From the IMG/VR virus record IMGVR_UViG_3300016665_000824, positions 32,001 through 96,000 of that record: DNA of 64,000 bases. One strand, given 5' to 3'. This DNA comes from a virus. Numbering within the stretch: the first letter of the stretch is position 1; every line of letters begins with the position of its first letter. A program made the position numbers and the translations under genes. The notes beneath the pieces were generated by a model, which saw nothing but the letters and a program-made list of their open reading frames with translations, did no database searches and was not told the origin of the DNA. Of the stretch, positions 2,952 to 52,753 are shown piece after piece.

Positions 2952-4403
2952 TTAATAATTCCAGTCAAGGGATTCGTAAACCAGAGTCATCGACTCGATC
3001 AGCTTCTCCGCGCCGACAAAGTATTCCTTCCCAGACGGCGTAGCGCCAATCAGGTAACAGTTTCTCAGTGTCGCGCCAAGCAAGCTAATTGTTCTCACTG
3101 CGGGGGTAGATCCTTTTGACAGGGCGGTGCGAGATGCGTTAGCTAGCGATCGCCATGCAATCACATCACTCGCTTTAACCCCTGACAACCCCAATGTTAC
3201 TGATTGGCGAGCGAGGGCTACCTGTGTTTGCACTCCATTGCGATTAAGGAGGATCTGTGAGTTATCGGCATCGGCAAAAGAGATCGAATCAACCTCATAG
3301 CCATCGAAGAAGTTTGCTGCGCCCGCACCCGTTTGATCGTAAGACCAATATTTGCTGATAAATTCAAGCTGGGTTGATGCTCGTATTTCCCGCCCGCTTA
3401 CGGTTACGGTTTCTGAAGGAGTGACATTAGTAAGAATTGCCGAGGGGATTGTGTAGCCAGCAACAGTTAACGAGATGACTTCAGGATTAAGAGCATCGGC
3501 AACATTTTCGACCTTGTGGATATAGTTGACTGCATATTCTGCGGGTGTGCCAATTACCGAGAAGGATATCCGCCGCTTAAAGGTTGGGACTTCGCGACGA
3601 CCCGAACCTGCTTGGTTAATTACAAATATCTTTGTATCAGCGCCAACATTAATATTCGCGATCGGGTAGCCATCGAAAGTCCCCTGAGAGAATGGGACAT
3701 CATAATTTCGAGTTTCATATTCAAGCACCAGTGCATCACTAATTTTGCCCAGCCCCGTAGTAATCGAAGCGGTCGGTGTTACTGATGTCAGTACTGCATT
3801 ACTTAAAGTAATACCGCCAATAGTAATGTCTTCAGTTAGTGGCGCAAGCAGGTCTGTATTCAGTAAGTTTAAAAATTTCTGATAGTCGGCTGGTGAAGTA
3901 CCTTTCAGGGTAATCGTCACCTTGCGGCGCTTAACTACGGCAGTACGAACTATGCCTGCATCGGCATACTGGACGCTAATCGAATCACCATCACCGAACT
4001 GAACCCCGTCTAACTCGACCGTATAACCTTTAAAGTGGTCGAAGGCTACACCATGCGTCCAAGTATTACTTTCGTAGAGCAGTCTTAAAGTCTCAACTAT
4101 TTGAGCTTCACCTACCTGCAAAATACCCGTTATTTCTGCGGAGACAAGGCGACATCCCGACAAACTGCGTCCACCATAGGAGATACTGTCACGGAGATCA
4201 GATCCTGCTTCTGCTGCGGACTGATAGTAAAGAACGTCGGCATCTGAGACCCCAGTAATGGTTATCCCGATGTTTGGGCGATAAGCCTTGAATTTTTGGA
4301 GCGTAGACCCGTCCTGCTTGGTGAATTCCCTAGACTCCGCCTCGCCAAACTGAATACCATCTGGCGCGATCGCAAATCCATCAAATTGTAAAAGCGAAAT
4401 CAT
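2952..4403 (-). CDS. Putative tail/baseplate structural protein
   Basis: 483-aa ORF, beta-rich composition, first large gene after tape-measure-like gene. Confidence 0.5.
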   Translation of the reverse strand: MISLLQFDGFAIAPDGIQFGEAESREFTKQDGSTLQKFKAYRPNIGITITGVSDADVLYYQSAAEAGSDLRDSISYGGRSLSGCRLVSAEITGILQVGEAQIVETLRLLYESNTWTHGVAFDHFKGYTVELDGVQFGDGDSISVQYADAGIVRTAVVKRRKVTITLKGTSPADYQKFLNLLNTDLLAPLTEDITIGGITLSNAVLTSVTPTASITTGLGKISDALVLEYETRNYDVPFSQGTFDGYPIANINVGADTKIFVINQAGSGRREVPTFKRRISFSVIGTPAEYAVNYIHKVENVADALNPEVISLTVAGYTIPSAILTNVTPSETVTVSGREIRASTQLEFISKYWSYDQTGAGAANFFDGYEVDSISFADADNSQILLNRNGVQTQVALARQSVTLGLSGVKASDVIAWRSLANASRTALSKGSTPAVRTISLLGATLRNCYLIGATPSGKEYFVGAEKLIESMTLVYESLDWNY

Positions 4404-4472
4404 TGGCGCATCAAAAAGGCGATCGCTTTATTTAATGTGCGATCGCCTTTTTGATATTTAATTGTTGCGGAA

Positions 4473-4715
4473 TTAGGAAGCCTTGAGACCCTCCAATACG
4501 ATCTGAGATTCTTCGAGCATCTGACGATCGCCTGTTCGCTGGCAGATATAAAAATAGCTGTCAGCATCATAATCATATAAACGCCGCTTGATCGTATAAG
4601 ACTTATTGGCGTACAAAATCCTTGTTCCTAGTTGGTATTTGGGAATTCCAATCGCGTAGCTTGCACTTTTTGCTGTCATATTGTGTTCGTGGGGATATCG
4701 CCACAAATCTACCAC
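4473..4715 (-). CDS. Small hypothetical protein (GTG start, or ATG at 4679)
   Basis: 80-aa ORF; start overlaps CCACAAA operator-like element. Confidence 0.3.
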   Translation of the reverse strand: MVDLWRYPHEHNMTAKSASYAIGIPKYQLGTRILYANKSYTIKRRLYDYDADSYFYICQRTGDRQMLEESQIVLEGLKAS

Positions 4716-4718
4716 AAA
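4699..4718 (+). promoter_or_regulatory. Operator-like direct repeat CGCCACAAATCTACCACAAA
   Basis: Two CCACAAA half-sites 11 bp apart, ~68 nt upstream of 4788 ATG; 19/20 identical to 27933-27952. Confidence 0.5.
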
Positions 4719-4787
4719 AATAGGTTAAAATAATTTATTCGCCGCAGCGTTGTAGCGCTCGGCGTGTGAATCACCAACCATAACTTA

Positions 4788-5321
4788 GTGACTACACATA
4801 TGATACGAGCAATTCGTGCAATCGTCGAGCTTGATGATTTTTCTTTCGATGCGTACCAAATGCCAGACGGTGAAAAGCGCATTGGGTTTTTGGGAGCTTC
4901 CAACGTTTTAGGCTATGCTGACAACTGGTTGGGCAGGTTACATAAAGGCGATTCTCGGCAGCTAAAGGCTATACAGGGTATGGGTTATAGCGGCTTACAA
5001 ACCGAGGTCGAAATCATTCAACGGGGTAGGGAGATTAGCGCCTACGGGACTCGTGCAAATACTATCTCTCTTCGGGATTTTATTAAACTTGTAACTTATG
5101 AGGCTATCAAGAAAACAAATACCCGCGCAATTACTATTCTTGCCTCAATGGCTGAGTTTGGTTTTGAGCAAGTCATTGACATGGCTTTTGCTGGCAACCC
5201 AATGGATGAAATCCTTTCAAAGATCGTTCACTTTAGTCTATGGACTCAAGAAGAATGGGAGCAAGCTTTGGCGGATAACAGGGAAGACTTAGCTAATTTG
5301 CGACTTGGGATGTGGCGATAA
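4788..5321 (+). CDS. Accessory (moron-like) protein, unknown function
   Basis: 177-aa ORF on opposite strand between structural genes; preceded by CCACAAA direct-repeat element; convergent with giant ORF. Confidence 0.55.
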   Translation: MTTHMIRAIRAIVELDDFSFDAYQMPDGEKRIGFLGASNVLGYADNWLGRLHKGDSRQLKAIQGMGYSGLQTEVEIIQRGREISAYGTRANTISLRDFIKLVTYEAIKKTNTRAITILASMAEFGFEQVIDMAFAGNPMDEILSKIVHFSLWTQEEWEQALADNREDLANLRLGMWR

Positions 5322-5352
5322 GGTAACAAGGACTTGAGTCCTTGTTACCTTA
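5319..5352. terminator. Strong hairpin (15-bp stem, 4-nt loop) spanning the stop codons of two convergent genes
   Basis: TAAGGTAACAAGGAC-TTGA-GTCCTTGTTACCTTA; no flanking U-tract. Confidence 0.45.
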
Positions 5353-11300: not shown

Positions 11301-13780
11301 AATAGGTATTCTGGAACCTGCCCAAAGATCTGGAAGAATGGCCCCGCGAGACTTTTTAGGGTCGCAATCACGTTCTTGAATACGTCAAACAGTATTCCTG
11401 CGAGACTCCCTACTTGAGCAGCGATCGCGTCTTTATTCTTTGAGAAATACTGGTAAAACCCGTCAAGTTCCGCTACTAAAGGTGCGAGGAATTTCTCCCC
11501 AGCGAGTCTGCCGATCTCATCAACTAGCTCTTGAATATTGCTAACAATCCCACCCACGGACTGAGCAGCTAGCTTGTTTCCAGACTTAAATGCTTCTAAT
11601 CGACCTAAAAGCTCTTTGACGAAGGTTCCTTGAGACTTCCACTTAGCCACCATCTCATTGTTGAGGTTAAGCGATTTGGCAAGAGCTGAGTTTTGGTCAA
11701 TAGTTCCCGAAGTTATACTAACAACCTCTTGACGGGCTTGATATAAAGGTATGCCAAGCGTTCCGAGTGCGGCGGCGAACGAGGTTGTAATATTAGCAGC
11801 GTCATTCAAGGACGCGCCAATGTTGCTTGCCTGCCCAGCAACGATCTGAAAAACCCCGACAAGATCTTTACTGGTTACGCCGACCAGCTCTAACGAGTCT
11901 TTACGAATTTTATCGATCGCCCCTTCAACCGCAGGGCCAACCGCCTTGATCGCTTGAGTTGGATCTGATACGCGATCGCCATTAACTACGATTCTATTGG
12001 TTGCCGCTAAGCTCGCCTGAGTAGAGAGTAGTTGCTCTTGGAGCCTGATGTTTTGCCCAATCAACAGATCGAAAGGGCCGTTTTGTACAAATCCTTGGAG
12101 TGCCTGCAATCCCAATCCCAAGAAAGCAAGTCTCTGAGATACTTCAAAGATCGCGTTGGTTGCCTTGCCAGCACCTTCGCTAATTAGATTGAATACTTCT
12201 AGTGGTTCCGTCGCCCCCGCCACTGGAGCAACCACTGCGGCGGCAATATCTACAGGTTCTTGCAGCTTCGGGGCTATCTCTTGAGTCTTTTGAAACCCCT
12301 TAACGATAACATCATCAACACTATCGATGACAGTACCGACTTCGGCAAGGATTGTTGATCTCAGTCCATCAACAAAATTCTTACCTGCGATCGCGCCAGT
12401 ATCTTTTAAAAGCGAACTAAATGTTCCGCCAAAAAACTCGTCAATCTTGGTTGCAAGTTTTTGCAGTGAGCCATCCCCGCTTCCGATAGAATCAATCGCC
12501 GCGCCCAACCCTCCGTCAATAGCATCGACAGCTTTTAGGGCTAAATTCCTGAGAGGCGCAAGGATGCTAGTATCTTCTACGCTAAACAAGCTATTGAGAG
12601 CCTGTCCAACGCCTCCCTTTTGAGTCTCTATTAAAGGGCGGAGGATGGCAAAAGCGGATCTTAAATCCTCTGGAATTGCTTTTTCTAGTCCATTAAATAA
12701 CTGTCCAGACAACGCATTTCCAAAATCTTGCAACTCATTAGAGGCAACAATCGACCCCAAATTTGCCACCCCGATCTTGTTGGCAATCAGTTTTGCTAGT
12801 GGTGGTAGTGGCAACTTATCTACAAGCTGAGGGATTCGCCCCGCTAGGCGGTTGATCAGCTCAGATACAGAGCCGCCTAACTGTTCGTCAAGAATTTTAA
12901 ATTGATCGGTCGCCTCAGATCTGCTGCCGACGATTGCCCTGCCGACCGATCCTCCTAAAGCGCTAGATAAGCGCCCTACAACTCTTTGTCCGTCCTCAAC
13001 GTTTGGCGCGATTGCGTTAACGGCAAAAGCTTTAGCAGCACCCGATACCGACCCACCAGCCAACTGCTTCGACACTTCCGACAGCAATCCAGTTTTTGCC
13101 GCAGTCCGAAATGAGTTGGCGACAATTGAGGTTAAATCCGCCCCGAAAGCTTGGTTAACAATACCTTTTAAAGCGTCGGGGAGTCCTCCCCCAACAACGC
13201 CCGAAATGAGTGAGTCGGCGATCGCGTTATCTAGCGTTCCAGTAAAAGCCTCAACTCCCACTCCAAGCTTGCGCTGAATTTCTTGATTTAGCTTTGAAGC
13301 CCTAACATTTGCTTCTAACGCTTTACCGAAACTGTTTGCAGAATCGCTAAGTATCTGCGTAATTCTCTTGCCGTTATCCGAAAATATTGCAGACTGAGCT
13401 TGCTCTGCCGACTGCTTAGATAAGAATCCTCCTCCGACATCTTTTCCTGCAGAGGTAATCCCCTTGATTACCTTTGAGAGCGGAGCTAGTTTTGAAACTG
13501 CACTGTCGGCGACATTCGAGATCTGTTCTAAAAATATTTTGCCCGACTGCGTATCTAGTACATCTCGAACCGACTGAATTGCGTCTCTCAGCCCTCCAAA
13601 CGTGCCAATCGCGGTTGCCCCTACCGTGCTGATCGTTCCGCCAAGGGCTTGTACAGATCCCTTTGTTACGTCCGCAACAACACCAACACTTTTTAGACCA
13701 GCAGCTATCTCCGAAACTTGTTTGCTTGCTTGATCTTTCGCCTGTATTAAGATCTCAACAATATTGGTTTGCGGAGCCAT
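5345..13780 (-). CDS. Giant virion protein, tape-measure-like (tail length tape measure or ejection/internal virion protein)
   Basis: Uninterrupted 2811-aa ORF; Gly/Ala/Ser-rich hydrophobic N-terminal third, long E/K/Q/A/L-rich coiled-coil centre, internal tandem repeats, position between head and tail-fiber genes. Confidence 0.6.
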   Translation of the reverse strand: MAPQTNIVEILIQAKDQASKQVSEIAAGLKSVGVVADVTKGSVQALGGTISTVGATAIGTFGGLRDAIQSVRDVLDTQSGKIFLEQISNVADSAVSKLAPLSKVIKGITSAGKDVGGGFLSKQSAEQAQSAIFSDNGKRITQILSDSANSFGKALEANVRASKLNQEIQRKLGVGVEAFTGTLDNAIADSLISGVVGGGLPDALKGIVNQAFGADLTSIVANSFRTAAKTGLLSEVSKQLAGGSVSGAAKAFAVNAIAPNVEDGQRVVGRLSSALGGSVGRAIVGSRSEATDQFKILDEQLGGSVSELINRLAGRIPQLVDKLPLPPLAKLIANKIGVANLGSIVASNELQDFGNALSGQLFNGLEKAIPEDLRSAFAILRPLIETQKGGVGQALNSLFSVEDTSILAPLRNLALKAVDAIDGGLGAAIDSIGSGDGSLQKLATKIDEFFGGTFSSLLKDTGAIAGKNFVDGLRSTILAEVGTVIDSVDDVIVKGFQKTQEIAPKLQEPVDIAAAVVAPVAGATEPLEVFNLISEGAGKATNAIFEVSQRLAFLGLGLQALQGFVQNGPFDLLIGQNIRLQEQLLSTQASLAATNRIVVNGDRVSDPTQAIKAVGPAVEGAIDKIRKDSLELVGVTSKDLVGVFQIVAGQASNIGASLNDAANITTSFAAALGTLGIPLYQARQEVVSITSGTIDQNSALAKSLNLNNEMVAKWKSQGTFVKELLGRLEAFKSGNKLAAQSVGGIVSNIQELVDEIGRLAGEKFLAPLVAELDGFYQYFSKNKDAIAAQVGSLAGILFDVFKNVIATLKSLAGPFFQIFGQVPEYLFKSLAGAVKAFSDAMSLTLAVVQPAINVFEQIAGVVGPLGGIWIGISVGAKVLSGAIGALNKGFSLMFNLVPGLGEVLFLLDKRTNGVVNTFANLSSVVGRGSAGFLLLAENLNKIPGAAGLVQKELGKVLGAFSPFAGVITAALPTLGGFGVKLIGLTQAFPALGTALQGFTKAAPIALTAFSGIVGKSQLFGSFSPLIADAAKSLGKFADVATNTEKVNSIFSNSLKAAGAAARSFAVSTALLGAGTFVGFVFFDQLILKNKGLQKIIQDVTAAIRKFADTVGSVLAPVIKVVADTILPFFTFGENSNPFQKVVGGLLIAIAVTKLFGGTISNVFKTINTGISGAGASIGETFGRIKKLNDSVREILGGKPVQSTTLNPTQVVAAKREVSGLKQQAIVSQKDSTDLSLTPEARAAALKSYQETTDRIKSLRSQIIANPIPVPFTKQFAEDIGAIATKTKTSLKSLGDSIGSFISDIKGRFSQDSSQKTGIFANLPAQIENTKASIRNAFANINIPASLVNLRNGVEKAFSQINVPTSLANARLGLDKFFRELNIPASLANSRIAIDKFVNQVKSISLPDLSLKNLGAGLKTGFQDALSGVKDFGSRAKSSFADFTQNANVSVGGLYSNLKKGAVGATSFISENVKGISKSFAALAAEIGPTLLLSAAFAAITTLVGYVDQETKAATANVDKLNDALKDSDARVAILNKSQGKDAASELANLTSEREKYVASIQDKSILQDDPTLKLYDQQLAKLKELRGLQSKPTNSEDALREKVKKERDNIGTRVTEGFALTGDAAREGLRTVTFGASDKLGLGDRAGNLEEKAVQIRLQDNKNVLNQSASRRVDLGIGLSAQKKLQEDLIKLEQEKSKAEALSDKDGAARFDIQIENKKKEIAERNNNIEAIINQVQAVEGLDAERDRELEALRKLQESYKSVNLQIQAIDLPRIGNAIEQATSKYNAALDALNKSAGDPALFKAKLGELLETANALQDAGILRADEVAGAFQKVATNVSADRDLQIKAQEAITAAYKKEADRRIAIYDAQLSQIQALLATGRISESESIALSGQLEEKKIQAQSEADQKALRARQQILETNANEQKQQIKRDRELAEAQLAAATGDPSKIRQVREAQAPVLQGKIDDTSQQIKDAEARKKALQESISTGVAGDNAAEDVKKVTDELAVLQSRLNSLQSQKGTLDSTLKLSEDTQGQLEGITKQIEDGEKALSSLKAGNAETLQRFNTVKDAPFFNSSEYTAQIKAEQDAIAKKESELRTLQTKRDQLSSIAKPDAERQNLAKNSIADANKKELDLVKATAAQKARLEEDADNKRKDAEAKIAKARSERFVKGLDAQIKETLAAEKVGETQRLAQIAQLRKSGIKLESEIKLQETAERKRSITLELQLEQQKQKAIADLEKKGVGVSKETKNANLIKVAELSKQLAEAELAAIEGLVSAVRDRLVLESQKYAVTIEQQNLKLERQKLLFTALEKGLENQSRLSESANKLAQSTVALRESEFAALNKIYDRQQAAIRAAGGQGNFADLELEEKKLILAEKLAVLKLNSLKQQQKFEAESLEREIQKRDLLLERKKVENEIAIAKKKVDIASQDAAIKAAELEVKLRPQSEEAKLKLAQAKLGQEKNFLELGGLQQEKGFIADEAKVNEIVNKNDRQALANKQQGETNTAIGDVIGATRDPALQERLQREQLARLTQNTGTAALTTTDVSNAVAAASQPVNVRGASFKNPTSALLGQVEQGGVFTAAPEPKPDNAPFATSFEELAKKYPDKGMAGSFEELNKKYPAQANSFEELNAKYGGKPTEEAKPEQAIASSFDKLTQQIDEGFSKVLVAPDLKVKDLTAGLEAEFNRVSKQISENPVTLKIDDKAFEEAQKKLDKPIALLDEGQLQRAEALAQAFGSLGGKDLVPQQQGNPTGAALGTSGNITVNAPIAINTQSNISSAAGVGNDVQKAVNDTLNNVLRRVAGVTSGVR
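5872..6000 (-). repeat. Three imperfect tandem ~42-48-bp repeats near the 3' end of the giant ORF
   Basis: Encodes SFEELAKKYP / SFEELNKKYP / SFEELNAKYG. Confidence 0.65.
9581..9820 (-). repeat. Four tandem 60-bp (20-aa) repeats inside the giant ORF
   Basis: Encodes NIPASLVNLRNGVEKAFSQI / NVPTSLANARLGLDKFFREL / NIPASLANSRIAIDKFVNQV / NLPAQIENTKASIRNAFANI. Confidence 0.7.
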
Positions 13781-13823
13781 AAGAATAACCGAGAGAGAGT
13801 CTTCTCAGTTATTCTTGTGGGGT

Positions 13824-22875: not shown

Positions 22876-22968
22876 ATCGCTATTGTTTGATGCTCACAAG
22901 CAAACAGGCGATCGCTTGATGAATTAGCGATCGCCTGTTAGATCTCCTTGTACACATGGCACATGAGG

Positions 22969-24467: not shown

Positions 24468-24528
24468 AATTCAATAGATATAAAAATATCGAGCGCAGGT
24501 ATTCCCACGCTCGATATTGGCGATCGCC

Positions 24529-26336: not shown

Positions 26337-27827
26337 CTATTTTCTAGTGGAACGAGCTAAGGGTTTGGAGTAGTTCTTGCCGTAGCGCTCGTTATTGCGT
26401 TCTGCGGCATCCTTCTTCTCCTCGGAATCTTTACGCTCAGTGCGACCAACCTTTACGGCGGTCTCTAGGCGATCTGCGTAGCTAGGCGCAGGAACAAGAG
26501 TTGCGTACTCAGCCGCGCTATCGAAACGGGCTTCGATGTAGCTATCGTTGCGATCGCTTAAATCAACTTCAGGATGAATAGCCTTCAGTGCAGCGCGACG
26601 AATCTCGGTGGAGTCCATCGTGGTTTCGATACCTGCATCCTCGATGTTGATACCCTTAGAGGTAAGAAGGTCGTGAGCCTTGCCAATTGCATCGAGGCGA
26701 TCGGCAGTCTGGCGATTGATTTCTTCAGCGAGGAATTCACGGACTTCATCGGAGTCAAGAACGACTGCCAACTCAGAAGAGTCCATCTTCTTGCCCTTCT
26801 TCATCTTTTTCTTGATGAAGTCAGGCATCTTGCTTTCACCCTCGGATTCCTCATCGTCAGGCTCGCCTTCGCCGTCTTCCTTGTCACCACAAGAAGCATC
26901 CTGACGGATAGTTTCGAGTTGAGTTAGGGTTTCGGTTAGCTCATCTTCAAGAGCGTCAGCACGACCCTTGGTGCGATTAACTTCGGAAGTAAGGTCGGCG
27001 ATCGCGTCAGCCTTCTCTTTGAGTTCAGCCTCAAGAGAATCCACGCGAGACTTATATTTAGATAGTTCTTCGAGTTTTTGCGACAGGGGGTAGAGCGCGA
27101 TGTCCTCCACCTGAAACTCGCCAGCGCCATCCACGCGCAATGTTTTTGTTTTCAAATCGGACATAGCGGAGCTACCCTCATTTTTAATTGTTGGAATAAC
27201 GACAACGCTGTTCGGAGCAGAGGCTTTAACTTGGATCGAGTCAAAGCGAACTAGCTCAACAACCTCATCCCCATCGGCATCGGCACTATCGAGGTGCATC
27301 CTCACAGTGCTCCCCCCGCGTGGGTTGTCAGTTGCGGCGCAATGGTCTGGTCGAATCTTGGTTTGAACACGGTCAAAATCGCCCCGATAGGTGATCTGGT
27401 CGATCGCGTCGAACCATTCGCCATTCGGGGCTTCTACGATTTCGCATTCATATCCAAGAGAAAGACCGTTCTTTTTGCCTGCCTTTACGGACTGGGCAAA
27501 ATCGGGGTTAGAGATTCGGGCAATATTCTGTACAACCCCCTCGTTATCGTTGTACTCACCCGCCCTTGTTAATTCACCAACAGCGCTATCTCGTTTTCCC
27601 CGCAATAGCGAAGATGGATGCTCGACAGTCATCGGCAATCCTTTTAGGGACTCAAGGAAATCGCGATCGCGGTTTGCCGAAGCAGGTCGCAATTCACGAA
27701 CTCGCTTTCCGTCACCTCGAAAGTATGTCAATATGCCGTCTCGACAAACCGTGCTGTACGCATACAGCCCGTCCGCACGTTCTTCAGTGCGGGTCGCGAA
27801 ACTTACGTCATCAAAACGAAATGCCAT
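26337..27827 (-). CDS. Putative head maturation protease/scaffolding protein
   Basis: 496 aa; globular N-terminal half, coiled-coil and strongly acidic C-terminal half typical of scaffold; precedes capsid genes. Confidence 0.45.
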   Translation of the reverse strand: MAFRFDDVSFATRTEERADGLYAYSTVCRDGILTYFRGDGKRVRELRPASANRDRDFLESLKGLPMTVEHPSSLLRGKRDSAVGELTRAGEYNDNEGVVQNIARISNPDFAQSVKAGKKNGLSLGYECEIVEAPNGEWFDAIDQITYRGDFDRVQTKIRPDHCAATDNPRGGSTVRMHLDSADADGDEVVELVRFDSIQVKASAPNSVVVIPTIKNEGSSAMSDLKTKTLRVDGAGEFQVEDIALYPLSQKLEELSKYKSRVDSLEAELKEKADAIADLTSEVNRTKGRADALEDELTETLTQLETIRQDASCGDKEDGEGEPDDEESEGESKMPDFIKKKMKKGKKMDSSELAVVLDSDEVREFLAEEINRQTADRLDAIGKAHDLLTSKGINIEDAGIETTMDSTEIRRAALKAIHPEVDLSDRNDSYIEARFDSAAEYATLVPAPSYADRLETAVKVGRTERKDSEEKKDAAERNNERYGKNYSKPLARSTRK

Positions 27828-27932
27828 TGGCTAATTCAACTTAGGTCAATGGCATTACTTTCTTGTTTTGTCAAGATGAATATTCGGTTTTATGGAAATT
27901 AGCGATCGCTTTTCTTTAAATACGCTCAATAC

Positions 27933-30822: not shown

Positions 30823-30863
30823 GCAATAAAAAAGGAGTCCAATTGAGACTCCTTTTTTATTGC
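30823..30863. terminator. Bidirectional intrinsic terminator
   Basis: 17-bp perfect stem GCAATAAAAAAGGAGTC / GACTCCTTTTTTATTGC with 7-nt loop, A/T tracts on both sides, between convergent genes. Confidence 0.7.
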
Positions 30864-31726: not shown

Positions 31727-32686
31727 ATGTCTGAATACTATTTATACGGCGATCGCGAAGGTAATGCTCTTGATCGGTTAAAAGCTTCTCGCCCTCAGCT
31801 AATCAATAAGCTTTACTACTGGGCTGGCAAACGGCTTGACTATCGGGTTAAGCATTCGCTTATGGCGGAGCAGGATGTTTCCAAGCAGGTTGATCGATAT
31901 CTAGAGGCGATTGCATTTGCTTCGTCGGAAAAGGATCTGCTAAACACGCTCAACAGTTGGAACCTCCTGTCACCTCAAGAGAAGGCGATTATGGCAAAGC
32001 TGTTCCCCTTCAAACCAAATCATCGGTTTGATCCTACAAATTTACAGTTTGAAGGATGGTTTACTGGGTGTAATTGGTACGAATTGAGAAAGGGCGAGTA
32101 CATCACCGCAGAAGAGGAAGTTCTTGACGGCATTGCCTATCAAGGACAGGAAGTAGCGATCATCACAAAGAATGCTTACGAGGCAGAAGTTTTGAACGCC
32201 AAGAATATGATGATTGTTGACGTGGATCTTGAGGGTGATCAGGCGATCGTGCAGAATGCTCAGTTCGCTCTTGACGTACTTCGATCTTTTATTAGCAACA
32301 CAAAAAATTGGGATCTAGGCTTTAGGGTTTACAAAACTGCGGCAGGTTTGAGATATATCTGCACGACCCATGAATTTGAAGCGACAGATCCTCTTAGCGA
32401 CAAGATTATGCGTAATTTACTCGCTGATGATCGCTACCGAGCTTTGTGTAAATTCCAAGATACCTATCGCGCTCGATTAACTCCAAAACCTTGGCGAGCT
32501 TCTGACATTGCGTGGCGTAATCGCGGAGTGTGGGATGTTTCAGGCGAATGGGTGGAATATTTCAGGGTGTGTGACTCGCTTAGCCTCTACGGAAATACTA
32601 ATATCCTTCCCCAGTTCGCCAAGGCGATCGAATACCATGATCGAATCACAAATGTCTTTGCCGATCCAAAACTAATCCTCGCGTAG
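31727..32686 (+). CDS. Hypothetical protein
   Basis: 319-aa ORF; inverted CCACAAA dyad ~30 nt upstream. Confidence 0.5.
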   Translation: MSEYYLYGDREGNALDRLKASRPQLINKLYYWAGKRLDYRVKHSLMAEQDVSKQVDRYLEAIAFASSEKDLLNTLNSWNLLSPQEKAIMAKLFPFKPNHRFDPTNLQFEGWFTGCNWYELRKGEYITAEEEVLDGIAYQGQEVAIITKNAYEAEVLNAKNMMIVDVDLEGDQAIVQNAQFALDVLRSFISNTKNWDLGFRVYKTAAGLRYICTTHEFEATDPLSDKIMRNLLADDRYRALCKFQDTYRARLTPKPWRASDIAWRNRGVWDVSGEWVEYFRVCDSLSLYGNTNILPQFAKAIEYHDRITNVFADPKLILA

Positions 32687-36953: not shown

Positions 36954-37039
36954 GATTTAGATCTGAATACGTTGTCCGATAATAAGCGATCGCCAATTCA
37001 GCTTCATTTAAAATCTCCGAAGGCGCGATCGCTAAGATT

Positions 37040-38593
37040 TTGGCATTTAGTTGTGCGATCGCTATGGCAAAATTTACAACAGGAGATCAGGCTTCAACTG
37101 CTGCTCTGTCGCGAGTTGACACTCTTCTCCAAACTATAAATACCGACGCAGACTATGCGCTTTGGCGGGAATGGATTTATGACAGGGCGATCGCCAAACT
37201 AGCACTAGGCTTAACTGGCGGAGGTGGAAGCTCCACTTCAATTCTTGCGGGTTTCAAGGCGATCGCTAATGGCACTGGCTACAGTATTGGCGATTTGATA
37301 TTTTTGCGGCAAACAGGAACTAACCAAACCGAATATTACAACGGTACTACAGGTTTAGTTATTACACCTGCCCCACCTAGCAGCGATCTTGGCTCTATTA
37401 TCTCTTCTAGTAATGTTGCTGTTACATCACTTCCTCCATTGCCGTCTGGCGCAAATACCATTGGCGCTATATCAAATGCTAGTTTTGGTATTAGTGGTAG
37501 CTTGCCAGCATTTGCTAGCACACCCACAGTAAATATTGGTACTACTGGCGCGATCGCCACTGATAGCACCTTACAGCAAGTAAGGGACGCGATCAAAGCA
37601 CAGATCGATATCGCCTCAACAATTTGGACAGATAACACAGATACTTTTTATGTACGACGAGATCTGGTAAACGAAGGAACGGGAGTAATCACTGTATCTT
37701 TTACTTTGCCAGACGGTACGGCGGCTACACCTAGCGCTGGACTTAGACCTCTAGCAACCGTAGATAAAGATGTTCTTAGTGATTATTACGATGTATTGAT
37801 TGCGGGTACTGGCTATGCGATCGGGGATTTATTAGCAAGGGTTGCGATCATTGATGCAAACGGTGCTTCTCCAACATCAACATTTATCTGGCTGAATTTG
37901 ACGGCAGGGACAATCCTCGGAACAGCACCTAGTTCTGCAAATATTGAAAGAGCGAACGAAACTATCGGTGCTAGGCAAAGCGGTACATGGAATATCACCA
38001 ATATTAGTGGTACGGTATCACTACCTACGGGAGCCAGTACATCGGCTAATCAGGCTACAGCGATCTCAAGCCTTGGCAGCATTGACGGAAAACTCCCTGC
38101 GAGTTTAGGGGTAAAAACTGCTGCTAATTCACTTGCTGTAACGCTTTCAACGGATGGAATCGCGAGTGGAATTGACACAAAAATTGGCGAAGTCCAAACA
38201 ACTCCAACTGCTAATACTGTTTTGGCGAGATTAAAAAATATTGCTGATGCGTTGGTGTTTGGGGCAAAATCACCAGCTAATAGTATTTCAGTTACCCAAG
38301 CTTTCGCCGCAACATCTACCCTAGCGAATGTGGCTAGTAGTGCGACATCAGTTAGCTTGTTAGCTGCCAACAATAACCGCAAAACAGCAATCATTCTAAA
38401 TGATTCGACTTCAGATTTATACGTTACTCTCAACGCAAGCGCCGCCAGTACGACGAATTATTCATTATTTTTAGCCGCTAAAGTTGGTAACACGCCATCA
38501 TTTTTAGCTATAAATGGTGATGATTATTCGGGCGAAATTCGTGGAATTTGGAGTAGTGCTAATGGTTTCGCAAGAATTACGGAGGTCGTGTAA
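37040..38593 (+). CDS. Tail fiber-like protein
   Basis: 517 aa, Ser/Thr/Gly/Ala/Asn-rich beta-type composition; precedes second fiber-like gene. Confidence 0.55.
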   Translation: MAFSCAIAMAKFTTGDQASTAALSRVDTLLQTINTDADYALWREWIYDRAIAKLALGLTGGGGSSTSILAGFKAIANGTGYSIGDLIFLRQTGTNQTEYYNGTTGLVITPAPPSSDLGSIISSSNVAVTSLPPLPSGANTIGAISNASFGISGSLPAFASTPTVNIGTTGAIATDSTLQQVRDAIKAQIDIASTIWTDNTDTFYVRRDLVNEGTGVITVSFTLPDGTAATPSAGLRPLATVDKDVLSDYYDVLIAGTGYAIGDLLARVAIIDANGASPTSTFIWLNLTAGTILGTAPSSANIERANETIGARQSGTWNITNISGTVSLPTGASTSANQATAISSLGSIDGKLPASLGVKTAANSLAVTLSTDGIASGIDTKIGEVQTTPTANTVLARLKNIADALVFGAKSPANSISVTQAFAATSTLANVASSATSVSLLAANNNRKTAIILNDSTSDLYVTLNASAASTTNYSLFLAAKVGNTPSFLAINGDDYSGEIRGIWSSANGFARITEVV

Positions 38594-41552: not shown

Positions 41553-43208
41553 TTATTTGAGTCGTCCCTCAACCCACATCTTAGCAAAGGGAGAGTCCAA
41601 ATCCTTAAACAACCGAGAAGCAATTTCTACAGCCGAAACGGAATCCTGTTTAACACCTTCTTCGGGAGGTGTATCTGCTTGACCCTGATCTGCACCTTGA
41701 TCGCCAAAGTAGTCGCCACCTTGATCGCCGCCATATCCCTGTAGAGCTGCAAGCTCTTGTTGCTGCTTGGCTAATTCTTCATCCTGCTTCAGTTTTTCCC
41801 ACGCTTCCTTATCGAGAGAGACCTCATAGGAGTACTCTGTTCCACCGTAGAGGCTAGCGCGAACTTCATCCTTAGTAATTGCTCCCGACTGGGTTTGCAG
41901 AGCGATAAGCATATTAGTGTGAGCAGTTTGGTTGGCTACTTCATCTTTGCGACTCTCTACATAGAGGGGTTTAAACTTATAAGACCATCCTTCAGGGATC
42001 TTACCCTTCGTAGGGCCATCTTGAGCGAGCCAAATATACTTGTAAAGCATATCCAACTTGCGGTGGCGATAATTCTGCTCTTGATAGGCAGCAACGGTCT
42101 TTGACCAAACCTGATCTTCGGTTTCTCCAGTACCACCTGCCGCTAACCCTTTTGGTCCACGCCCAAAGATCATTGTGTAAGGAATCCCCACCGCAGCAAC
42201 CAAATCTTCTTGAAAGCTCGCTTTCATGTCGGACAAGCCTTGGTAGTTCCGCACTAGATAAGTAAGGTCATCTTCCGAGTCTACCGACACCGCCCCCAGC
42301 TTCCGCATCTGCATCTTCATGGCGCGAAACTGTTCTGAAAGAATGGTTAAAGCTTTTGGCACTCCATTGGTAGTGGCAGCTCCACCAGCAGCTTTTTCTT
42401 GGGCAAGATTTTGTTTGATCAGGTTTTGCAGGTTCTTCATCTTGTGGAGAAGAATCGTGTGATCTTGAATCATCTCCGCCATTGCGTCGGAGACTTTTGT
42501 GTAGCGAGCAATTTCTTTGAGTGCTGAGACGATTAGCGGATCGCCCCATCCACCCGTCGATCGCAACAATCTTGGAGGTAATCGAGAACCATCAAATCGA
42601 ATAATCCGCGATTTGTGAATTAAGTTGAACGAGGTGTAGTTTGAGCCTAACTTATCTATCTTGGATTTCGATTCTTGGGAGTAAAAGACCTGATAAAAGT
42701 CGGGGTCATCAGAGGGTGCATCAAGGTTTGGGAAATACGGGCGGATATCCTGCGGGTCAAGCTCGTAGATACCCTTGATGGTTTTAATTTTTGCCGTGTT
42801 AACTGGCTCGTTTGGGGGTAGCCCATCATCGATATTGACGAGAATAGCTGCGCCGCCATAAATATTCGCTAGCCAGTCAGCCTTATTAAATTTGTATTTC
42901 GCTTCTATCCTTTCTTCGTACTGTTCAAAGGCTGTGGCAATCTTGCGATCAGTGTCCTTAACTAAGCTAATCTCAGTCCATTTTCTTGTTGCCTCGTCAG
43001 GAAACACCGAGACAATTTTCTTTCCTAGCCAGTCCCTAGATAGTTCTTCGAGGGCTTTGTAGCTTAGTCTGCGCCGATCGCCTGTGCTATTCATCCCCAG
43101 ATCATTCTGAGCGAGCAGGTTGTTGTTGTACTCAGCCTCATAGAGCGCATCGATAATGGCTCCGTCTTGTCTCACATAGACTTCGGGATAATCTGTTTCT
43201 TTGGACAT
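41553..43208 (-). CDS. Putative portal protein
   Basis: 551 aa; no Walker A, so not terminase large subunit; Gly/Asp-rich acidic C-terminal tail; AVGIPYTMIFGRG segment; structured 5' leader. Confidence 0.45.
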   Translation of the reverse strand: MSKETDYPEVYVRQDGAIIDALYEAEYNNNLLAQNDLGMNSTGDRRRLSYKALEELSRDWLGKKIVSVFPDEATRKWTEISLVKDTDRKIATAFEQYEERIEAKYKFNKADWLANIYGGAAILVNIDDGLPPNEPVNTAKIKTIKGIYELDPQDIRPYFPNLDAPSDDPDFYQVFYSQESKSKIDKLGSNYTSFNLIHKSRIIRFDGSRLPPRLLRSTGGWGDPLIVSALKEIARYTKVSDAMAEMIQDHTILLHKMKNLQNLIKQNLAQEKAAGGAATTNGVPKALTILSEQFRAMKMQMRKLGAVSVDSEDDLTYLVRNYQGLSDMKASFQEDLVAAVGIPYTMIFGRGPKGLAAGGTGETEDQVWSKTVAAYQEQNYRHRKLDMLYKYIWLAQDGPTKGKIPEGWSYKFKPLYVESRKDEVANQTAHTNMLIALQTQSGAITKDEVRASLYGGTEYSYEVSLDKEAWEKLKQDEELAKQQQELAALQGYGGDQGGDYFGDQGADQGQADTPPEEGVKQDSVSAVEIASRLFKDLDSPFAKMWVEGRLK

Positions 43209-43257
43209 ATTCAGTGGCGATCGCGTATGTCCATCTGACAGGCGATCGCCACTGAAT
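43209..43257 (-). promoter_or_regulatory. 16-bp-stem hairpin directly upstream of the portal-like gene start codon
   Basis: ATTCAGTGGCGATCGC...GCGATCGCCACTGAAT ending 1 nt from ATG at 43208. Confidence 0.45.
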
Positions 43258-43281
43258 CAGGAGTATTTGCTAAAAAAGCAA

Positions 43282-43307
43282 AACAGGACTGCGTTGGCAA
43301 TCCTGTT
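43282..43307 (-). terminator. Intrinsic terminator, minus strand
   Basis: 11-bp stem (one G-U) with CAAC loop, then U-rich tract on minus strand; between 43329..44063 and portal-like gene. Confidence 0.55.
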
Positions 43308-43328
43308 TTAGGTGATTCAGATCGGAAT

Positions 43329-44063
43329 CTATTCTGGGATGTCTATATCCCCAAGCGCTCTTATCTTCTCTCTAAACTCTATAAATGTCCTTACCACGCC
43401 TATGTAGTCACTAAATCGAGTCTTAAGCTCAGAGACTTCTTTCTGGCTTAGCTGTAGAGACTCAATATAGTTTTGTTCTCGATCCTTGAGGTTCGCGTTC
43501 TCTTCCTTAAGATCCGCAATCTGTCTGCGTAGATCGGCGATCGCTATTAGGATCTGATCAATCTCCTCCTTTGTTATTGCGCTTGGAGGATCTTCAAACT
43601 CCCCATTCTGTAGGGCGATCGCGCCAATCTTCCGAATAGCTTCGCGGTACTGAAGTCTTTCTTTCTGGAGGTCGTAGGCACTTTTCTCGATCTTTGTATA
43701 CTCTGCGTCAGTCACGTATGGAGGGGACTCCACTTCGACACACAGAAAGTTCGTGCCAATTCTTGCTAATCTATACCCAATCTCGGACTTAGCTCGACGG
43801 ATATGATTTATCTGGGATTCCAGCTTTGTATAGAACTCGTCGGTCTCAACGTCGGACGGAGAAAAACCTTCGTCTAGCAAGAGCCTGCCAAGATAATCAA
43901 TCTTTTTAGCGAATAGCTTCTTGGTTTCTACTGCTCGTTCGTAGTCTTCTAGCTGCTCAACATAGGTCTGTGCAAGCGTCTGAATACTCTCGTACTGCGA
44001 TCGCGGAACGAACCACTTGGAAAGGATGTCGTTAATTAGATTCAAATCAATCCTCCAGCTCAT
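43329..44063 (-). CDS. Coiled-coil hypothetical protein
   Basis: Start reassigned to MSWRID (ATG 44063); followed by minus-strand terminator. Confidence 0.4.
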   Translation of the reverse strand: MSWRIDLNLINDILSKWFVPRSQYESIQTLAQTYVEQLEDYERAVETKKLFAKKIDYLGRLLLDEGFSPSDVETDEFYTKLESQINHIRRAKSEIGYRLARIGTNFLCVEVESPPYVTDAEYTKIEKSAYDLQKERLQYREAIRKIGAIALQNGEFEDPPSAITKEEIDQILIAIADLRRQIADLKEENANLKDREQNYIESLQLSQKEVSELKTRFSDYIGVVRTFIEFREKIRALGDIDIPE

Positions 44064-44736: not shown

Positions 44737-45247
44737 AAATATTTAGGTTTGACTGATATCGAAAAATCACGCCGAAGGGGATATCGACTATCCATGCAGG
44801 TGACTGCTCATACTGCGTCCTTATGGGCTGTCTTGGTACAGGGGTAATATCCCGTCCGTCCCATTCGACTCCTAAGAAGTTTTTGCTGGGGATTTTAAAT
44901 CTGTTGTACTTCGCGATCGCGTGAGAGATGAACGCCAGTTCGACAGGAACTTTTTGTTTGTATTCAGTCTCGTTGGCATATCCTTTGATCGCCAAAACCT
45001 CAATCCTTTGCATTCGATAAGCCCTGTTTGGGCTGTCGGGACGCTCAGAATCTTTGCCGTGGTCGCCAATTGAAGCTATGCCGACGGTCTCGCCTTCGAT
45101 CACGTTGTAGTAATCCCCACTAGTGTCTAAGTGCAGCTCACTGATAATGTGTGCGACAAAGTGATTTATCGACTCGGTTATAAGCCCTTTGTAATAGTCT
45201 TCAAAGTTCATCGTGGCGATCGCAAAATATTGCCTTGATATTACCAC
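44717..45247 (-). CDS. Hypothetical protein
   Basis: 176-aa ORF. Confidence 0.4.
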   Translation of the reverse strand: MVISRQYFAIATMNFEDYYKGLITESINHFVAHIISELHLDTSGDYYNVIEGETVGIASIGDHGKDSERPDSPNRAYRMQRIEVLAIKGYANETEYKQKVPVELAFISHAIAKYNRFKIPSKNFLGVEWDGRDITPVPRQPIRTQYEQSPAWIVDIPFGVIFRYQSNLNIYGEFVE

Positions 45248-45262
45248 AGAAATGCGTTATGG

Positions 45263-45805
45263 TTGTTATGCGATCGCCAAGTCTCAATTGGCAGGAAGAA
45301 TGTCACTGGCGACAAACATAAGGATACGCGGCGAGATACTGGCGATCATCTTAAAAGAAATCGTAAAAACCACATGAAAGAACTTGAAAACAATAAAGAT
45401 CTTGAATCTTTTCTAAAAGAGCTGCGAGAGCAGGCGGTTGCGGGTGACTTTGGTGTGGATGCTCTGCTTAACGAAGTAAGGAAAGCCGCAAAAAAGTGTG
45501 AAGAATTTAGGAATACAGAGTCTAGTCAGCCCAAGGATATTGAGTTTATTCAAGCTCTAATGCGATTTGCCGCTAACCAGCCCAGTCTTGCATTTCTAAC
45601 CCCTTATTTTGGCAAACAAAAATCAGAAGAAGAAGTTCAGGCTATTTTTAAATCGTTGCTGCTTAGGGAGTTAGGAGAACTCAAACTCTCTGCTAATCAC
45701 CACAAAGCCAGTATTCAGTTCTATCAATATGAACTAAAAAGGAACGAGAGATATCGAGCAGACATAGAAGAAGCGATCTCCAGAAATTATCCAAACCTAA
45801 AATAA
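45263..45805 (+). CDS. Hypothetical protein (plus-strand insert; start may be ATG ~45376)
   Basis: 180-aa ORF followed by small membrane protein. Confidence 0.4.
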   Translation: MLCDRQVSIGRKNVTGDKHKDTRRDTGDHLKRNRKNHMKELENNKDLESFLKELREQAVAGDFGVDALLNEVRKAAKKCEEFRNTESSQPKDIEFIQALMRFAANQPSLAFLTPYFGKQKSEEEVQAIFKSLLLRELGELKLSANHHKASIQFYQYELKRNERYRADIEEAISRNYPNLK

Positions 45806-49595: not shown

Positions 49596-50051
49596 ATGTC
49601 TAACTCTAGTTCTGCCACAAAATTGGCGATCGCAAGATTAAAAGGATCTGACCTGCCTATTTTTGTTCCAGTTTCAGTCTCTGAGAAAGTCGCAACCCTA
49701 GTCAGGGAGTGTATTTTACAGTCCGACAGTTTAAAGATATTAAAAGTTACTACTACAGTTTACAACGAGCTTACTAAGCATTTAAAGCAGTACGAAAAGC
49801 CAAAATATACCATTCCTCAGTATCTTTTGATGCTCCTATATACGGTTTCTACTACTTCAGAATTGATCGAAAAACACAACAAGGGTTTAATTTCAGATGA
49901 CGAGTTTATTAACTGTATCAAAAACAACAAAAACGCAAACGGGACTAAAACCTCCCGCAAAATGGGTCGGAAGAAAGCAAGCGTTGATGCCAGCGATCGC
50001 GCAGTACTTCCCCGCGAGGTTCACAAAAGAACCAGTTCCAAGGTTTCTTGA
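49596..50051 (+). CDS. Hypothetical protein; 3' end overlaps methyltransferase start
   Basis: 151-aa ORF; ~155-nt overlap with next gene in another frame. Confidence 0.35.
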   Translation: MSNSSSATKLAIARLKGSDLPIFVPVSVSEKVATLVRECILQSDSLKILKVTTTVYNELTKHLKQYEKPKYTIPQYLLMLLYTVSTTSELIEKHNKGLISDDEFINCIKNNKNANGTKTSRKMGRKKASVDASDRAVLPREVHKRTSSKVS

Positions 50052-50814
50052 TTTCAAAAAGGGTGTCGGCAATTTCCACGACCCTTTCGTTGGTACTGGT
50101 AGTGCATTTTTGTATTTTGCGGATGGATTTCGAGGCGATCGCAAGATTTTTATTAGTGACAGTAATCCTGAACTCATTAATATTTGGCTGTGCATTCAAG
50201 CCGATCCTCTAAGGCTTTTAAGATCCTTGCTTGAATACAAGCGCCCTGTATTTAACAGCGCCGAATCGTACTATCACGAAAGGCAGATCTTCAATCAGCA
50301 GTTTAAAGGTTCTTACGACTACGAGCTAGCAGCAAGAATGATCTACTTAATTCAGGCTGGTTTCAATAGCCTATGGAGGGTTAACAGCGACGGTGAAATG
50401 AACACGCCTTTTGGCTCTCAGAAGCAAATTGCCCTTCTTACCGAGAATGATTTGACCGCGCTTTCGGTTCTCCTTCAAAAAGCGACAATCAAACATCAGC
50501 CTTTTGAAGAGTCGCTAAAAGATGTACAACCCAATGATGTCGTCTATCTCGACCCGCCATACATTGAAGTCAAAAAGAATTCCTTCAATAAATACACCAC
50601 AAAAGGTTTTAGCAGAGAGCAGCAGATACTCCTCCGCCAAGAAGCCGATCGCCTGCACGATCTAGGCGCTTATGTATACGCCAGTAATAGCGATACCCCC
50701 TTGAGTCGCGAAATTTGGTCGGGCTGGAAAATCGCAGAACTGACGAGATCGGGCTGCATGAACTCAGATGCAACCAAGCGTCAACGGGTTGGAGAGTTGT
50801 TATTTTATAAATAA
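49897..50814 (+). CDS. dam: DNA N6-adenine methyltransferase, Dam (D12) class
   Basis: KWVGRK N-terminal motif, FVGTGS motif I, VYLDPPY motif IV. Confidence 0.8.
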   Translation: MTSLLTVSKTTKTQTGLKPPAKWVGRKQALMPAIAQYFPARFTKEPVPRFLDFKKGVGNFHDPFVGTGSAFLYFADGFRGDRKIFISDSNPELINIWLCIQADPLRLLRSLLEYKRPVFNSAESYYHERQIFNQQFKGSYDYELAARMIYLIQAGFNSLWRVNSDGEMNTPFGSQKQIALLTENDLTALSVLLQKATIKHQPFEESLKDVQPNDVVYLDPPYIEVKKNSFNKYTTKGFSREQQILLRQEADRLHDLGAYVYASNSDTPLSREIWSGWKIAELTRSGCMNSDATKRQRVGELLFYK

Positions 50815-52437: not shown

Positions 52438-52703
52438 TGCGAAAAATAGACAAGGACTACAGTTTTACAGAACGAGAGATTCAGGCGTTAATGTTGATAT
52501 GCACTATTGGACGAGAAGACTGGCTCACTAAAGAGGTGAAGGAGATATTGTCGCAATACATAAGCAGAAAGATGTATCACAGGACTGCTTCTCAAGTCTT
52601 TGCTCACAGAAAAAGAGTTCTGGGTTCTTTCCCTAGCAATGCGGGTAAATACTTACTTGAAAGGCGAACTAGCTTTATTGAGCGATCGCGGAGGAGTGAG
52701 TAA
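52437..52703 (+). CDS. Small hypothetical protein
   Basis: 88 aa; stop lies in bidirectional terminator. Confidence 0.4.
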   Translation: MRKIDKDYSFTEREIQALMLICTIGREDWLTKEVKEILSQYISRKMYHRTASQVFAHRKRVLGSFPSNAGKYLLERRTSFIERSRRSE

Positions 52704-52753
52704 AAATATAAAAAGACGATCCGACGTGAGATCGGATCGTCTTTTTATATTTT
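52703..52753. terminator. Bidirectional intrinsic terminator
   Basis: 22-bp stem AAAATATAAAAAGACGATCCGA / TCGGATCGTCTTTTTATATTTT between convergent small-gene array and primase. Confidence 0.65.

Follow-up and report, generated by a model that had tools for sequence, protein, structure and literature searches.

The DNA considered here is a window of 64,000 nucleotides (nt) from the virus record IMGVR_UViG_3300016665_000824 of IMG/VR (positions 32,001 to 96,000), in which two long perfect hairpins stand directly upstream of the start codons of the portal gene (hairpin 1) and of a virion/tail-module gene of 483 amino acids (aa; hairpin 2). The window comes from an uncultured siphovirus-like phage of cyanobacteria (cyanosiphovirus) with a genome of ~134 kb and encodes a head protease, the major head protein, the portal protein, primase, DnaB helicase and a D12-class N6-adenine DNA methyltransferase (49897-50814, plus strand). 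Among GenBank phages the best portal match is just 31 % identical (S-CBS4, CL131, PaV-LD), and there is no close relative in culture. A prophage or a host copy was discarded as an origin, since GTDB genomes contain neither a portal match nor the hairpin pattern. The phage is rich in HIP1, the Highly Iterated Palindrome 1 of cyanobacteria (PMC5861425, PMC4390886): the octamer GCGATCGC, which contains both GATC and CGATCG, occurs 139 times in the window versus 1.29 expected occurrences, a count reached in 0 of 100 shuffles. This over-representation of about 100-fold amounts to the hyper-abundance that defines HIP1 and is a host-like cyanobacterial signature. Proposed roles of HIP1 include chromosome organisation, recombination and gene regulation (PMC6604393); in the HIP1 literature (including PMC5861425 and PMC4390886) we did not find paired-HIP1 hairpins, terminators or phages discussed.

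The portal gene (41553..43208, minus strand; 551 aa) matches PF06381 (E=1.5e-57) and phrog_146 (E=1.2e-74), in agreement with the portal-like call of a first-pass annotation of the window. Its start is taken as the true one, the N-terminus MSKETDY / MSETDY being kept in homologues. Hairpin 1 (43209..43257, minus strand), found by the repeat finder and by folding, comprises 16 perfect base pairs (bp) between a 5' arm at 43257-43242 and a 3' arm at 43224-43209, with HIP1 octamers at 43242-43249 and 43217-43224. It spans positions -1 to -49 of the portal start, and the ATG (43208-43206) abuts its base, 0 nt outside the stem. The first-pass annotation had the stem end 1 nt before this ATG; the stem is indeed there, the "1 nt" being a coordinate difference with no unpaired base in between. 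Within the 17-nt loop (43225-43241) an inner 4-bp helix of UGUC (43240-43237) and GACA (43231-43228) is predicted with an apical AGAUG, which gives an apical loop of 5 nt if the inner helix forms and one of 17 nt otherwise. The portal start lacks a Shine-Dalgarno (SD) sequence (best anti-SD duplex -3.0 kcal/mol within -75..-1); GGAGG-type sites are used by other genes of the phage. Neither an A-run nor a U-run accompanies hairpin 1, whose 3' side reads GCGAUCGCCACUGAAU-AUG, and judged by this layout hairpin 1 is not a terminator.

The terminator scan returned a canonical intrinsic terminator (AAAACAGGAUUGCC...GCAGUCCUGUUUUGCUUUUUU; 43279..43310, minus strand) that belongs to the upstream 263-aa gene and lies 21 nt upstream of hairpin 1; the terminator stem shows compensatory changes in the related locus L004 and is wholly different in L023. 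A scan of 42900-43600 disclosed no sigma-70-type promoter between this terminator and hairpin 1, and such a promoter was dropped as a candidate. The stop codon of the upstream gene lies in a conserved palindrome (43314..43329), which is GATTC-N6-GAATC here and the perfect 12-mer TTCAGATCTGAA in most relatives. In minimum free energy folds of the window and of L004, 43314-43329 is predicted to pair with CAGAU (portal codons 5-7), enclosing the terminator and hairpin 1. Two candidate reading-frame explanations were discarded: an upstream open reading frame (ORF) from an ATG in the loop of hairpin 1 (7 codons here, in the portal frame in L004), as the loop reads ATA in L019, L020, L027 and L023, and small ORFs across the hairpin, which have only TTG starts.

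Hairpin 2 (4410..4455, minus strand) has 17 perfect bp, with arms at 4410-4426 and 4439-4455, HIP1 octamers at 4419-4426 and 4439-4446 and a 12-nt loop (ACAUUAAAUAAA, 4427-4438). It covers -7 to -52 of the 483-aa gene (2952..4403, minus strand; phrog_35535, function unknown), which lies downstream of a 2811-aa tape-measure-like ORF. The ATG at 4403-4401 is taken as the true start, MISLLQFDGF being kept in homologues, and again there is no SD sequence before it. The AUG lies 6 nt outside the stem, bases 4404-4409 intervening, exactly the spacing that had been claimed. Read on the minus strand, hairpin 2 consists of AAAAA, the 9-bp GC core GGCGAUCGC, the loop, GCGAUCGCC and then UUUUUGAU, or in full AUCAAAAAG-GCGAUCGC-(12 nt)-GCGAUCGC-CUUUUUGAU. 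The first-pass description of two long perfect hairpins before start codons, both containing HIP1, stands: the repeat finder gave 100 % complementarity for both, and GCGATCGC is present in every arm (at 43217, 43242, 4419 and 4439).

HIP1 pairing alone provides 8 bp, to which the stems add 8 (hairpin 1) and 9 (hairpin 2) perfect bp outward. The other 23 HIP1 pairs spaced by at most 100 nt extend by 0-2 bp, except for one intergenic pair (22903-22939) with 5 bp, and first-order Markov simulations of the window yielded 0-4 nested matches with stems of at least 10 bp. In silico folding, proposed in the first-pass annotation as a check, gave z-scores of -9.25 for hairpin 1 and -5.78 for hairpin 2, with 0 of 200 shuffles as good. 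We also sampled 5116 segments of 67 nt, one every 25 nt on both strands. With -33.9 kcal/mol, the portal start region (-55..+12) ties the minimum of this sample, and the corresponding region of the 483-aa gene (-28.2 kcal/mol) falls at the 0.33rd percentile; these are the two most structured starts among the 70 genes of the window, for which the median is -10.2 kcal/mol. The stem extensions, simulations, shuffles and fold ranks together imply that the hairpins are not due to chance. A known RNA family was dropped as an explanation, Rfam 15 giving no covariance-model match at gathering score across the whole window. A packaging (pac/cos) site or genome end likewise found no support: no terminase gene is near and no related contig ends at the hairpin.

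Portal relatives were gathered from IMG/VR, JGI, ENA and Logan assemblies, which yielded nine near haplotypes (portal identity 80-96 %) and three more distant ones (45-50 %). The order of elements is the same in all of the near ones. The upstream stop codon lies within the palindrome TTCAGATCTGAA and is followed by a canonical terminator and by GCUUUUUUAGCAA; 13-15 nt of variable sequence then lead to HIP1, or to a variant of it differing by 1 nt, a loop of exactly 17 nt, a second HIP1 and 7-9 nt before the ATG. The loop half TGTCAGAT is invariant or nearly so among them, and 11 of the 17 loop positions are strictly invariant, versus 0 positions of the outer 5' arm. Full pairing of the outer stem is confined to three haplotypes: the window, where 8/8 pairs are Watson-Crick, the L001 group, where two G-C pairs have become G.U, and L004, where the stem grows to 23 perfect bp including the AUG and 4 of the 8 outer pairs are changed on both sides relative to the window, all of them complementary. 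The L020 group carries GUGAUCGC, which creates a G.U pair; in the remaining haplotypes about 3 pairs are added to the core, or a bulged alternative forms. The AUG is paired in L004 and in L013. Sense RNA folds more stably than antisense RNA in 9/9 haplotypes (e.g. -29.1 vs -20.1 kcal/mol in L001 and -17.6 vs -11.0 kcal/mol in L020), since several changes give G.U pairs when read on the portal strand.

In the three relatives at 45-50 % portal identity there are also two HIP1 octamers, 6-7 nt separating the second from the portal ATG, with loops of 36-39 nt that have UCAAAGU in common. CL131 and PaV-LD, more distant cyanosiphoviruses, have neither HIP1 nor a hairpin before the portal gene. A promoter-like cassette, TTGACA-N16-GACATT followed by HIP1, about 34 nt, HIP1, 6-9 nt and ATG, was seen in L029 (1260-1355 and 1920-2003) and L030 (1255-1355 and 1920-2003); each of them has two copies, one in front of the portal gene and one in front of its upstream neighbour.

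Hairpin 2, its U-run and about 45 nt upstream are kept in all relatives of the 483-aa gene (12 loci, 79-100 % identity). The genes upstream differ among these loci (ANT, WDGH or AAA_15/21 domain genes, small ORFs, or none), and the hairpin is kept despite this, so it belongs to the downstream gene. Relative to L036, the 68 nt before ATG 4403 are about 91 % identical, while the aligned regions overall reach 73 %; the L036 stem has two substitutions, both giving U.G on the sense strand, and in L006 and L007 there is one A.C mismatch. As far as the alignments tell, a variable accessory cassette has its downstream boundary at hairpin 2. Window positions 4404-5344 (cf. L037-L046) are hypervariable, and contigs with an identical 483-aa protein hold different inserts. 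At 5319-5352, over the stop codon of the 2811-aa ORF, lies a palindrome of 16 perfect bp around 2 central nt (TAAGGTAACAAGGACT / AGTCCTTGTTACCTTA). Two candidates around hairpin 2 were rejected: a 58-aa ORF across it (4400-4576, minus strand) that ends in ATGA and would allow translational coupling has no conserved start in relatives and is spurious, and the single sigma-70 promoter match nearby puts its -10 element inside the coding region.

How much of this conservation is due to HIP1 itself was assessed with a control set comprising L017, L004/L008, L036, L039, L013, L020 and L023. In blocks of ~74 % nucleotide identity, HIP1 is intact at 19/21 (L017), 14/19 (L004) and 8/9 (L039) window sites, a retention of 75-90 % that includes coding regions, versus a neutral expectation of about 9 % (0.74 to the eighth power). 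By this measure GCGATCGC is under purifying selection in these phages, and its presence in the stems is, on comparative grounds, a genome signature and not functional evidence for the hairpins. These numbers also bear on an explanation at the level of DNA, in which the octamers would serve as methylation, recombination or polymerase-pause sites, the hairpins would be incidental and the outer stems would stem from template-switch mutation. Several further observations fit it. HIP1 density is twice as high in intergenic regions (4.1 against 2.0 per kb), and 5 of the 8 close HIP1 pairs fall within the intergenic 7 % of the window; the phage has its own D12 adenine methyltransferase; in Synechococcus elongatus, RNA polymerase peaks in chromatin immunoprecipitation are centred on HIP1 (PMC3219970); and perfect outer stems with different arms in two lineages (window/L001 and L004) are the signature of arm copying (PMC8794818). 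It leaves without explanation, however, the invariant loop half together with the 17-nt loop fixed in nine haplotypes, the repeated perfect outer stems and the constant distance to the AUG. Template switching would account for the origin of perfect stems but not for their persistence at gene starts; the sense strand folds more stably in every case; and hairpin 2 keeps its 9-bp outer stem and U-run down to relatives of 79 %, with changes of the wobble type. We regard this explanation as unlikely on balance, if far from negligible.

The reading we favour is that the two hairpins are maintained cis elements, hairpin 2 of terminator type and hairpin 1 a stem-loop of the portal mRNA that limits or protects expression; taken as a whole, its chances appear to us about even. 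Each hairpin would be built round a pair of HIP1 palindromes supplying an 8-bp core of 75 % G+C, a composition and length matching the GC-rich stem (about 5-14 bp) of a terminator. Both are new examples of element types known from phages, terminators and start-proximal hairpins, the HIP1-pair cores being their peculiarity. While HIP1 here is the octamer of cyanobacteria, over-represented and selected as there, it differs in belonging to a virus and in making up, as pairs, the core of intergenic stem-loops.

For hairpin 2, the likeness to Rho-independent terminators is close: it has the 9-bp GC core preceded by AAAAA and followed by UUUUU, it is intergenic and follows a stop codon, and the U-run (GCGAUCGCC-UUUUUGAU) is kept in all relatives. 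The same order of A-run, GC core and U-run is found in four terminators of the phage that covary, i.e. the one upstream of hairpin 1 (43279-43310), the one that follows the major head protein gene (24485..24518, minus strand), an intrinsic terminator used as a benchmark and showing compensatory changes in L051, and two between convergent genes at 30823-30863 and 52703-52753 that came from repeat and stem searches. Hairpin 2 may therefore be read as a terminator or attenuator for transcription leaving the accessory cassette after the tape-measure gene, which would insulate the 483-aa tail gene. This qualifies the idea of the first-pass annotation that both hairpins share a post-transcriptional role: both are real and conserved, but they differ in kind, hairpin 1 lacking the U-run of a terminator.

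Hairpin 1, on the favoured reading, would form in the portal leader of a read-through or processed transcript, as no promoter of sigma-70 type was found in the stretch from the upstream terminator to the hairpin. Initiation should then be inefficient, since there is no SD sequence and a helix of -30 kcal/mol would tie up positions -1 to -49. Low translation of the portal gene would suit a virion protein present in 12 copies. Equally plausible would be a role as a protective 5' structure on processed portal RNA. The suggestion that the stems occlude ribosome access holds in so far as they would fill the upstream half of the 30S window at two starts without SD sequences; the AUGs themselves, on the other hand, are outside the stems.

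In phages T7 and lambda, RNase III sites and stabiliser stem-loops, like the 5' stem-loop of ompA, are helices that define processed ends and modulate translation downstream. Hairpin 1 resembles these as a long intercistronic helix but shows no sequence or Rfam relationship to them. A helix of about two turns has the size of an RNase III substrate, and translational operators are exemplified by those of MS2 coat protein and of T4 gp32, gp43 and RegA. Hairpin 1 could accordingly be the site of a trans-acting factor that recognizes the conserved loop, either a translational repressor or a double-strand nuclease such as RNase III. The loop is conserved in sequence and the stem is not, the hairpin lies at the translation initiation region as an operator would, and 16 + 4 bp with a small internal loop make about two helical turns. 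Yet no candidate binding protein was found, the loop motif is single-copy in the window and hence points to no evident regulon, there is no Rfam match, and a stem that varies from about 10 to 23 bp among relatives fits a ruler-type nuclease poorly. We consider such a site very unlikely.

Inhibitory hairpins at translation initiation regions are known from T4 genes e, soc, 49 and I-TevI, and like terminators they are classical phage elements (PMC3014915). What they share with the hairpins described here is a very stable helix at the initiation region of a morphogenesis or late gene; an AUG within the helix, as in T4, is matched by the portal gene of L004 and by the protease and tape-measure genes of the window. 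The two genes considered here are different in that their AUGs lie just outside the stems, there is no SD sequence to sequester and no internal late promoter was found. A temporal switch of the gene e type would nevertheless be conceivable, in which the full hairpin is present only in read-in RNA, which would be terminated or untranslatable, and RNA from an internal promoter, lacking the 5' arm, is translated. In favour of this, the loop of hairpin 2 contains the -10-like TTAAAT (ACATTAAATAAA / ATCTTAAATGAA / ACCTTAAATAAA), from which transcription would begin within the 3' HIP1; a TTGACA-N16-GACATT/TACATT/GAAATT cassette stands 1 nt ahead of the 5' HIP1 in distant relatives, and L029 has two copies of it, in front of two neighbouring genes; and the strong terminator upstream of hairpin 1 implies that the portal gene needs its own transcription start. 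On the other side, no sigma-70-type promoter was found within 42900-43600, the 3' end of the hairpin 1 loop (GACATAC / GGTGTAC / GGGGGAC) is implausible as a -10 element, and TTAAAT lacks both the conserved A at position 2 and a -35 element. Moreover, the putative promoter of the distant relatives lies upstream of both HIP1 octamers and not within the hairpin, and in L028 the upstream gene is divergent, so that read-in transcripts are not indicated. Such a switch seems to us improbable.

A further comparison concerns T4 genes 25 and 38, where a hairpin between SD sequence and AUG joins a split ribosome-binding site (PMC3014915). Here, too, the hairpin is directly before the AUG, and L013, L019 and L023 have GAGGU/AGGUG 5' of the core; the window and the L001 group, in contrast, show no anti-SD complementarity in -75..-1. 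A split SD site or an SD sequence displayed in the loop was rejected, as the motifs are present in some relatives only and not in the window. The portal leaders of L013, L019, L023, L004 and L020 contain SD-like GAGGU/AGGUG, either immediately 5' to the core or within the loop's 3' half, a hint that some members of the clade may have a split ribosome-binding site.

Several points weigh against our reading of the two hairpins as maintained cis elements acting in RNA. Retention of the HIP1 pairs is not evidence for hairpin function because HIP1 is hyperconserved everywhere, and we dropped this argument after the genome-wide control. The perfect 16-bp stem of hairpin 1 is lineage-specific, with only about 3 pairs beyond the HIP1 core in L017, L020 and L023. 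In fixed columns RNAalifold supports the 8-bp HIP1 helix, 2 outer pairs and, weakly, the inner 4-bp helix; its covariation term is close to 0, and just 1 pair is changed on both sides. Indels shift the register, and template switching could yield the same pattern of changes on both sides of the stem as is seen between the window and L004 (PMC8794818). Single stem transitions in both hairpins are sense-preserving in 5 cases and antisense-preserving in 2 (L013, L006); the difference is not significant and merely suggestive of pairing in the sense RNA. For hairpin 2, the loop of 12 nt exceeds that of typical terminators (3-8 nt), for which reason the consensus terminator scan did not list it, and atypical as well are the core of two HIP1 octamers and the start codon 6 nt on. 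A terminator that close to an essential gene would require partial read-through or an unrecognised further promoter, the conserved TTAAAT in the loop being a weak candidate for the latter. Finally, were transcription of the distant relatives to start inside the 5' HIP1, as the TTGACA-N16-GACATT 1 nt before it might imply, an RNA hairpin would be precluded there.

A bolder proposal takes HIP1-N17-HIP1 with the invariant UGUCAGAU loop as a dedicated operator gating portal synthesis, paired HIP1 octamers being selected to control late genes. The factor involved could be an RNA-binding repressor, a nuclease, or a methylation-sensitive DNA switch acting via GATC/CGATCG and the phage methyltransferase. 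We regard this as a long shot; if true, it would give HIP1 pairs their first concrete function. If instead the reading as terminator and portal-mRNA stem-loop is correct, a cyanophage tunes low-copy virion proteins such as the portal and tail proteins by terminators and start-proximal stem-loops, like T4, T7 and lambda, and a palindrome of host type, HIP1, has come to serve as the GC-rich core of such structures. The hyperconservation of HIP1 in a virus and the intergenic clustering of its pairs are possibly a more useful lead than the hairpins themselves, the phage clade being a compact, fast-evolving system for the 30-year-old question of HIP1 function.

A third HIP1-pair hairpin (22903..22939, minus strand), listed with 14 perfect bp, is intergenic and lies 27 nt upstream of ATG 22875. 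Outside HIP1, the arms and loops of the three hairpins are unrelated. They share with REP/ERIC-type palindromes the nature of intergenic stem-loops able to affect mRNA stability, but with no common arm or loop beyond HIP1 they are not a dispersed family. A dispersed or mobile palindromic element (REP/MITE-like) was also rejected for hairpin 1, whose loop motif occurs once in the window within 3 mismatches, with TTTTAGCAAAT at chance frequency. A simple HIP1 pair with an 8-bp stem and a 22-nt loop (37025..37062, plus strand) has its 3' HIP1 ending 1 nt before ATG 37064, 37055-37066 reading GCGATCGC-T-ATG, and both octamers are kept in L004. Conserved HIP1 pairs or triplets at 45214-45279 and 36986-37062 bracket divergent promoter regions and gene starts.

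Start-proximal hairpins without HIP1 were seen as well. The 3' arm of an 18-nt-arm hairpin (89 %; 13777..13820, minus strand) holds the ATG of the 2811-aa tape-measure-like ORF; a search for relatives of this start region found none. A 10-bp hairpin (27820..27856, minus strand) holds the ATG of the head-maturation protease gene in its 3' arm and is kept in L049, L051 and L052, relatives of 79-92 %, with a variable inner loop helix. In relatives, genes of other kinds adjoin the portal module: a C5 cytosine methyltransferase gene in the distant L030 (144-1238), and PAS/EAL or GGDEF/EAL genes of cyclic-di-GMP turnover in L017 (14610-15752), L023 (4245-5644) and L020 (4223-4390), which, going by their domains, are possibly auxiliary signalling genes.

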